Of a stretch of DNA of 64,000 bases, positions 58,056-59,836 are shown piece by piece. The notes beneath the pieces are model-generated. The model did not search any database. It saw nothing but the letters and a program-made list of their open reading frames with translations, and was not told the DNA's origin. The DNA is taken from assembly GCF_056746865.1 (NCBI RefSeq), contig NZ_CM163382.1; one strand, written 5' to 3'. Position 1 is the stretch's first letter; the number at the start of each line of letters is the position of its first letter. A program made the translations under genes and the position numbers.

Positions 58056-58173
58056 ATGTGATGAGCCGTTCATGATACAGGAGTAGTAAAGGGCATATTT
58101 TACCAATGTTAAGGCGACTTTCCGTTTTATTGCGAGTCGCCTTTCCTGATTATAAATCTTATTGTTTACCTAA

Positions 58174-59368
58174 GGAAGGTGCGAACAAGTCCCTGATATG
58201 AGATCATGTTTGTCATCTGGAGCCATGGAACAGGGTTCATCATGAGTCATCAACTTACCTTCGCCGACAGTGAATTCAGCAGTAAGCGCCGTCAGACCAG
58301 AAAAGAGATTTTCTTGTCCCGCATGGAGCAGATTCTGCCATGGCAAAACATGGTGGAAGTCATCGAGCCGTTTTACCCCAAGGCTGGTAATGGCCGGCGA
58401 CCTTATCCGCTGGAAACCATGCTACGCATTCACTGCATGCAGCATTGGTACAACCTGAGCGATGGCGCGATGGAAGATGCTCTGTACGAAATCGCCTCCA
58501 TGCGTCTGTTTGCCCGGTTATCCCTGGATAGCGCCTTGCCTGACCGCACCACCATCATGAATTTCCGCCACCTGCTGGAGCAGCATCAACTGGCCCGCCA
58601 ATTGTTCAAGACCATCAATCGCTGGCTGGCCGAAGCAGGCGTCATGATGACTCAAGGCACCTTGGTCGATGCCACCATCATTGAGGCACCCAGCTCGACC
58701 AAGAACAAAGAGCAGCAACGCGATCCGGAGATGCATCAGACCAAGAAAGGCAATCAGTGGCACTTTGGCATGAAGGCCCACATTGGTGTCGATGCCAAGA
58801 GTGGCCTGACCCACAGCCTGGTCACCACCGCGGCCAACGAGCATGACCTCAATCAGCTGGGTAATCTGCTGCATGGAGAGGAGCAATTTGTCTCAGCCGA
58901 TGCCGGCTACCAAGGGGCGCCACAGCGCGAGGAGCTGGCCGAGGTGGATGTGGACTGGCTGATCGCCGAGCGCCCCGGCAAGGTAAGAACCTTGAAACAG
59001 CATCCACGCAAGAACAAAACGGCCATCAACATCGAATCCATGAAAGCCAGCATCCGGGCCAAGGTGGAGCACCCATTTCGCATCATCAAGCGACAGTTCG
59101 GCTTCGTGAAAGCCAGATACAAGGGGTTGCTGAAAAACGATAACCAACTGGCGATGTTATTCACGCTGGCCAACCTGTTTCGGGCGGACCAAATGATACG
59201 TCAGTGGGAGAGATCTCACTAAAAACTGGGGATAACGCCTTAAATGGCGAAGAAACGGTCTAAATAGGCTGATTCAAGGCATTTACGGGAGAAAAAATCG
59301 GCTCAAACATGAAGAAATGAAATGACTGAGTCAGCCGAGAAGAATTTCCCCGCTTATTCGCACCTTCC
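58174..59368 (+). mobile_element. IS5 element (1195 bp) with 4-bp target duplication CTAA
   Basis: Terminal repeats GGAAGGTGCGAACAAG ... CTTATTCGCACCTTCC; CTAA at 58170..58173 and 59369..59372. Confidence 0.9.
58242..59222 (+). CDS. insH: IS5 transposase InsH
   Basis: 326 aa from [24 protein letters not shown]... Confidence 0.9.
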
Positions 59369-59836
59369 CTAATCATTTTCCTTTGCATAATGCGCCTGGG
59401 ATTAATGGCGGGTGCTTTTAGGAATGAAAGAAAATGCAAGCAATAATATAATAATGGCCTAATTTCTTTGAACATCATTAAGCATATCATCATCGTCTAT
59501 TTGCCAGAATCCGTCGACTTATAATCGCCAGAACGGCATATCAGGACGGTGCTGCGAACGCTGTGGCCCAAAACGTTCCAGTAAACTGTGTAGATGTTCG
59601 TAGATTTCCGAGCCATAATCGAAAAGGCGCGGATGTCTATTAAGGCATCCGGCTAATCTGTAAGCAATAACAACGGTTTATGCGGTGCGCGTTTTTCACC
59701 CTTGTGCCAGATTATTATATTGGCAATTGCCTGCTGTTCGAGCCCGCAAGTGAAGAGATATTACCTTGATCTCATTTGTTTTTTGTTGTCTACTCTGAGA
59801 ACGAACAAGGACATCCCCCATGAATAAACTCCCCGC

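Follow-up and report, generated by a model that had tools for sequence, protein, structure and literature searches.

A complete IS5 between yjhR and nanS in Escherichia coli: a simple insertion, most likely inherited as a near-neutral passenger

Results

Gene content of the yjhR-nanS region

The DNA analysed here, hereafter the window, is a stretch of 64,000 nucleotides from contig NZ_CM163382.1 (assembly GCF_056746865.1). Close to its right end, an IS5 element is located between two convergent transcription units, yjhR on the plus strand and the nanCMS operon on the minus strand. On the left, yjhR (56815..58055, +) is annotated by RefSeq, in a carrier of the same insertion and in K-12 MG1655, as a frameshifted pseudogene lacking its N-terminus. 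Its last open stretch (57039-58055) still encodes the C-terminus of an AAA_12 helicase and a PLD nuclease domain (PF13087, PF13091, PF00614). A hairpin with a 9-bp stem lies between yjhR and IS5, 55 nt past the stop of the former and with its end 30 nt from the latter (58111..58143, +; AAGGCGACT, a 15-nt loop, then AGTCGCCTT). The 118-nt region containing it folds better than shuffled sequences (z = -2.56), and the hairpin is a possible terminator. It was rejected as a called terminator: the loop of 15 nt is above the limit of 8 used in the scan, and no strong T-run follows.

On the right, the first remnant encountered is a fragment of a gene for a phosphorothioated-DNA-binding restriction endonuclease (59522..59727, -), identified from annotation and from the family model NF045808. 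Only about the N-terminal quarter is left; once a single frameshift is mended, it aligns with positions 7-74 of the 284 positions of the model (E = 5e-23). It is followed by ythB (59820..59918, +), a small-protein gene of 99 nt (annotated; WP_211180523.1), which starts 452 bp from the 3' end of IS5 and, being encoded opposite to nanS, shares sequence with the 3' end of that gene. At ythB the window is identical to the carrier FDAARGOS_497. Since the overlap covers the last nanS codons, a sense transcript of either gene is antisense to the other. A tagged YthB protein has been detected in K-12 (bioRxiv 10.1101/511675). Finally, nanS (59837..60817, -), the last gene of nanCMS, is an open reading frame of 326 codons, whose stop (59837) is separated from the end of IS5 (59368) by 469 bp. 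PGAP labels nanS ('sialate O-acetylesterase') as an incomplete pseudogene both in K-12 MG1655 (5279-5782 of the extracted locus L002) and in a carrier (6378-6944 of L001). Set against the full 326-aa reading frame of the window, this label may be an annotation artefact arising from comparison with longer homologues.

Without IS5, the spacer measures 582 bp, with 41.9% GC and 8 YTAR sites. A permissive Rfam search of positions 56000-61000 returned only two sub-threshold eukaryotic matches, and thus no known RNA family. In strain VG12A2 (NZ_CP128592.1), an independent IS1A insertion is found in the same 800-bp yjhR-endonuclease region of an IS5-free allele, which suggests that the spacer tolerates insertions. 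With pseudogene remnants on both sides, it looks like a permissive landing place. The domains left in yjhR, together with the endonuclease fragment, suggest a decayed defence-like locus between topAI-yjhQP and nanCMS.

Boundaries, ends and identity of the element

Script measurement and inspection of the sequence place IS5 at 58174..59368 on the plus strand. The element is complete, exactly 1195 bp long, and carries its transposase gene on the plus strand. The left end, IRL, is GGAAGGTGCGAACAAG (58174-58189, +); the right end, IRR, is CTTATTCGCACCTTCC (59353-59368, +) and is complementary to IRL at 15 of the 16 positions. These are the 16-bp imperfect terminal inverted repeats that define IS5, starting with GGAAGGTGCGAA, and both ends are identical to those of K-12 IS5A. 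The tetranucleotide CTAA, which fits the YTAR rule, is present immediately to the left (58170-58173) and again immediately to the right (59369-59372), and it occurs only once in the empty-site allele. The span 58170..59372 first reported for the insertion therefore consists of IS5 plus both duplications. Two flanks would share 4 bp by chance with a probability of 1/256; what settles the matter is the empty site, described below. The window contains no second copy of IS5.

Over its whole length, the element is 100% identical to loci annotated by PGAP as 'IS5-like element IS5 family transposase' on many E. coli chromosomes and on at least one plasmid. IS5-like sequence is common in the species, being found in 2,873 of the 5,426 complete E. 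coli genomes. Compared with 'insertion sequence:IS5A' of K-12 MG1655 (NC_000913.3), 1191 of the 1195 positions are identical (99.67%). The four substitutions fall at element positions 54, which lies in the 5' UTR, 368, 865 and 889. In ISfinder practice, copies with more than 95% nucleotide identity are treated as isoforms of one element, and at 99.67% the window copy falls within IS5, a member of the IS5 group of the IS5 family. Its length of about 1195 bp, its 4-bp YTAR duplication and its single long reading frame for an IS5-family DDE transposase are likewise those of IS5; every defining feature that could be tested was found.

These measurements bear out all that the first-pass annotation of this DNA had stated about structure. 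It had described an IS5 of exactly 1195 bp with intact terminal repeats (there is one mismatch in the 16-bp inverted repeat) and a perfect CTAA duplication, about 470 bp downstream of the nanS stop. It had placed the element correctly between yjhR and the nanCMS operon. Its picture of the neighbourhood was incomplete, as the endonuclease fragment and ythB had been missed.

Genes and regulatory parts inside IS5

The transposase gene ins5A (58242..59222, +) encodes 326 amino acids, followed by a stop. Domain and family models identify the product as a DDE transposase: it scores 121 bits with PF01609 (cut-off 23), 75 bits with PF05598, and 365 bits with the NCBIfam model of the IS5 family, NF033581 (cut-off 140). 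It corresponds to the variant WP_000019400.1, which differs from K-12 InsH1 by Y266S and R274K. The core ins5A promoter, as defined in PMC11894529, lies at 58179..58207 (+). Both hexamers are intact, the -35 element GTGCGA at 58179-58184 and the -10 element GATCAT at 58202-58207 (element positions 6-11 and 29-34).

On the minus strand within ins5A, the region of the ins5CB operon (58518..59173), whose existence was reported in PMC11677980, contains three reading frames (58518-58886, 58893-59147 and 58907-59173). All are still open in this variant, with three amino-acid changes. The 3'-terminal 177 bp (59192..59368, +) form the bent-DNA/IHF region known as IB, which activates promoters in other contexts (PMC2753651). 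This part of the element, A-tracts included, is identical to that of K-12 IS5A; indeed, no difference from IS5A is found past element position 889. A terminator scan of the minus strand from the nanS stop to IS5 called none in the spacer, and its sole call lies inside IS5 (59336-59324).

The window's four-substitution variant is widespread: identical copies are found elsewhere on chromosomes and also on plasmids. In strain NMBU-W13E19 the same variant is present at lgoR/lgoT, with a TTAG duplication of its own. Judging from the several different sites that it occupies, the Y266S/R274K transposase is probably active.

Empty site and simple insertion

The empty site was reconstructed by joining the two flanks, 400 bp from each, with one CTAA kept on the left. 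This sequence is found at 100% identity over the 800 bp in K-12 MG1655, C600, J53 and many other strains, and it is uninterrupted over at least 80% of its length in 1,644 genomes. On a larger scale, collinearity with MG1655 extends over more than 4 kb both to the left and to the right of IS5, and 4 SNPs separate the two sequences in these 8.8 kb. Because the flanks, minus IS5 and one CTAA, equal K-12 MG1655 at 100% over 800 bp, the event is a simple insertion. The first-pass annotation's description of a 'recent simple insertion' stands as regards 'simple'. 'Recent' holds only on the scale of E. coli evolution: as described next, the allele has been inherited and is not private to one strain.

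Distribution and origin of the allele

The left junction between yjhR and IS5 (300 + 300 bp) was found complete in 84 of the 5,426 complete E. coli genomes, and the junction between IS5 and the right flank in 85 of the 5,426. In at least 34 carriers, the final 20,001 bp of the window align without a break at 100.0% identity, and the carrier FDAARGOS_497 shows no SNP in its 7.5-kb overlap with the window. Among the carriers examined, IS5 and its flanks are identical, and every one has the same four-substitution variant. On this allele, later events have left their mark, namely an IS2 in nanM, an additional insert of 777 bp and an inversion between two IS5 copies. Taken together, these sequence comparisons are most simply read as one ancestral insertion, which would have been inherited and then diversified. 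In evolutionary terms the insertion is recent for E. coli, and it is shared by more than one strain.

Several observations on the carriers and on the window concern other insertions. The IS2 inside nanM is found in FDAARGOS_497 (7009-8600 of L001), Ecol_881 and DSM 101139, and would inactivate part of nanCMS. The 777-bp addition, which has the size of an IS1, lies somewhere in the 20 kb of carriers CFSAN061770, SW070910 and SW071620. Carrier 118UI is collinear with the window apart from IS-rich stretches at about 18.8-22.1 kb and 33.7-36.4 kb, a difference without consequence for the reading of the IS5 insertion. The segments that differ hold the other IS elements of the window: an IS2 (18816-20089), an IS3-family element (20879-22092) and an IS21-family element with istA/istB-like genes (33833-36251).

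The main alternative to common descent would be that this CTAA is an IS5 hot spot, hit independently and in the same orientation in several lineages, with no shared ancestral event. The site is AT-rich (39% GC within 50 bp on either side), and a study of IS5 hot spots reportedly found them to depend on DNA structure; both points count in favour of a hot spot. A junction query built synthetically with IS5 in the opposite orientation matched 0 genomes, a result that leaves some room for a hot spot specific for one orientation. Indeed, IS5 hits some sites repeatedly and in one orientation, as documented upstream of glpFK (PMC2753651). Because such sites are known, 84 genomes against 0 does not alone exclude recurrence. 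The argument against it comes from identity and from unused targets. All junctions examined are 100% identical, at least 34 carriers equal the window over 20 kb, and the same four-substitution variant was found in every carrier examined and the opposite orientation in none. Moreover, about 1,644 genomes have the same target sequence unoccupied, and of the 8 YTAR sites in the spacer, this is the only one at which IS5 has been seen. Recurrent insertion at a hot spot is thus improbable, and a single ancestral insertion is the reading retained below.

The literature was also searched for this insertion. The sole paper pairing 'IS5' with 'yjhR' proved to be a false lead (IS5376 and a gene label in a pangenome), and papers citing the carrier strains gave no usable assignment of the carrier lineage to a sequence type.

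Position of IS5 relative to neighbouring gene expression

IS5 is known to alter the expression of neighbouring genes. Here, the element lies 3' of both convergent units (yjhR on the plus strand, nanCMS on the minus strand), and neither a gene nor a known RNA or recognisable promoter is disrupted by it. Two modes of activation have been described. In the first, which requires IHF, IB is positioned some 117 bp ahead of a weak promoter and correctly phased on the helix (glpFK, lac; PMC2753651); a distance of about 100-130 bp to the start site was taken as the range for this mode. In the second, the ins5A promoter, otherwise silent, becomes part of a fusion promoter together with flanking DNA that contains a Crp site at -61.5 (fucAO; PMC11894529). 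Because IS5 is downstream of both convergent genes, none of the known activation geometries clearly applies, and the same geometry gives no support to the change in neighbour expression hinted at in the first-pass annotation. Judged by this geometry, IS5 is most likely neutral for nanS, ythB and yjhR. A regulatory effect of IS5 at this place is possible but unlikely.

If there were such an effect, it would most plausibly come from the right end, where IB (59192-59368) might enhance a weak plus-strand promoter beyond IS5 and so increase ythB expression and antisense nanS RNA, with altered use of O-acetylated sialic acid. Placed upstream and correctly phased on the helix, IB is sufficient to activate the glpFK and lac promoters (PMC2753651). 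The IB of the window is identical to the K-12 sequence used in those assays and is oriented to the right flank. Its 3' end faces a sigma-70-like site on the plus strand (59424-59452), which matches at 10 of 12 positions, has a -35 starting 56 bp past the end of IS5, and points to ythB and antisense into nanS. The small gene lies downstream on the same strand, antisense to nanS, and its product is detectable in K-12. Against this, 5 promoter-like matches were found in the region where 2.9 +/- 1.7 were expected, so the count is not above chance. Moreover, ythB starts 452 bp away, the promoter-like site nearer to it (59693-59721) is beyond the phase-dependent reach of IB (about -117), and the DNA in between is a pseudogene fragment on the other strand. 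We consider this enhancer effect unlikely. Its fullest form, in which IB would switch on a cryptic plus-strand promoter among the pseudogene remnants of this clinically widespread group of strains, raise YthB, produce antisense nanS RNA and thereby tune the catabolism of O-acetylated sialic acid in the gut, is a distinctly long shot. A milder proposal would make this IS5 the founder copy of a spread to up to 19 places in some descendants.

Still less probable is that ythB and antisense nanS RNA are driven by transcription through IS5, started either from the yjhR side or from an ins5A promoter assisted by the flank. At fucAO, the fusion between flank and ins5A promoter does drive transcription across the whole element into downstream genes (PMC11894529); in the window the core of the ins5A promoter is unaltered and yjhR points in the same direction as ins5A. 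However, the fucAO fusion strictly requires a Crp site whose centre is at -61.5 relative to the start of ins5A transcription, and the left flank (58060-58190) contains no Crp-like site, its best sequence departing from the consensus at 4 of the 10 specified positions. On its own, the ins5A promoter has next to no activity (PMC11894529, PMC11677980), yjhR is a pseudogene with a frameshift, and between it and IS5 there is a stable hairpin. The most likely reading of the locus remains one in which IS5 hardly affects its neighbours.

Inversion and donor role

In strain NMBU-W13E19, the two junctions of the insertion are found apart, the left one at 2.611 Mb and the right one at 2.534 Mb, on opposite strands. 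At one end the gene order is tsr-lgoT-IS5-yjhR-topAI (NZ_CP043406.1, 2607500-2614000); at the other it is lgoD-lgoR-IS5-endonuclease fragment-ythB-nanS-nanM (NZ_CP043406.1, 2531000-2538000). Both IS5 copies are identical to that of the window, and their target duplications are reciprocally exchanged, CTAA-IS5-TTAG at one place and TTAG-IS5-CTAA at the other. In this strain, homologous recombination between the IS5 at the window site and an inverted IS5 in the lgoR/lgoT spacer has inverted about 76 kb.

This rearrangement in another strain, and the IS-rich character of the 64 kb around the insertion (IS2, IS3-family element, IS21-family element), might raise the question of whether IS5 in the window itself marks the edge of a deletion, part of a composite transposon or another rearrangement, but that reading is refuted for this window, where the duplications match perfectly, a single IS5 is present, collinearity with K-12 extends beyond 4 kb per side and the empty site is that of K-12 at 100%, with nothing missing or rearranged.

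Many carriers, among them FDAARGOS_497, MS6198, ECONIH1, Ecol_881 and MEI008, have no chromosomal IS5 besides the window-site copy. Other carriers have up to 19 IS5 places, and the single extra copy examined is the same variant, identical in sequence. The IS5 at the window site may thus be the donor, or founder, of a later spread of IS5 in this lineage. Donor activity of IS5 depends on an upstream host promoter reading into ins5A (Onstead et al., PMC11677980).

Discussion

The element of the window closely resembles K-12 IS5A/insH1 (NC_000913.3, 273955-275149), with which it shares the length of 1195 bp, the 16-bp ends, ins5A with its reverse-strand reading frames, and IB. It differs by the four substitutions, which result in Y266S and R274K in the transposase and in the three changes in the reverse-strand frames.

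The IS5 insertions known to activate operons (glpFK, bglGFB, flhDC, fucAO) involve the same element and the same YTAR rule, and the IB and ins5A promoter on which they depend are intact here (PMC2753651, PMC11894529). However, those insertions lie about 100-200 bp upstream of the promoter of a silent operon and are selected under stress, whereas the window copy lies 3' of both units among pseudogene remnants; its left flank lacks a Crp site, and the promoter in its right flank is only putative.

A parallel for a donor role is the IS5 at nmpC of K-12, the main donor in that strain (PMC11677980). In both cases an upstream host gene, nmpC in K-12 and yjhR here, runs in the direction of ins5A. The copy at the window site, the sole chromosomal IS5 in many carriers, is likewise a candidate source. 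The difference lies upstream: a strong, mapped host promoter reads into ins5A at nmpC, whereas here a frameshifted yjhR pseudogene and the hairpin lie in front of it.

Altogether, these results are best explained as follows. A canonical, complete IS5 would have inserted once, by ordinary transposition and with duplication of a 4-bp CTAA of the YTAR type, into the AT-rich spacer between two decayed genes, the yjhR pseudogene and the endonuclease fragment. The resulting allele would then have been inherited by a closely related group of E. coli, represented by the 84-85 carriers among 5,426 complete genomes. Because the element is 3' of both convergent units and interrupts no gene, known RNA or recognisable promoter, it would most likely be a near-neutral passenger. 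Its consequences would be those of any IS copy, namely a portable piece of homology, as in the inversion of NMBU-W13E19, and possibly a donor for further transposition. We regard this account as a whole, that is one canonical insertion, an inherited allele, a near-neutral passenger and a source of homology for recombination, as very probable.

Both the element and the site were already known, the site being annotated in dozens of RefSeq genomes, and the insertion adds nothing new to IS5 biology. The only functional consequence that is evident is the homology offered to recombination. An effect on ythB or nanS expression, if true, would be a modest, lineage-specific regulatory footnote. The practical value of the insertion lies elsewhere. 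It is a handy marker, by PCR or in silico, for a related group of E. coli, many of them from human samples. Moreover, it is a documented substrate for large inversions, and thus matters when assemblies or synteny are compared around the nan-fim region.
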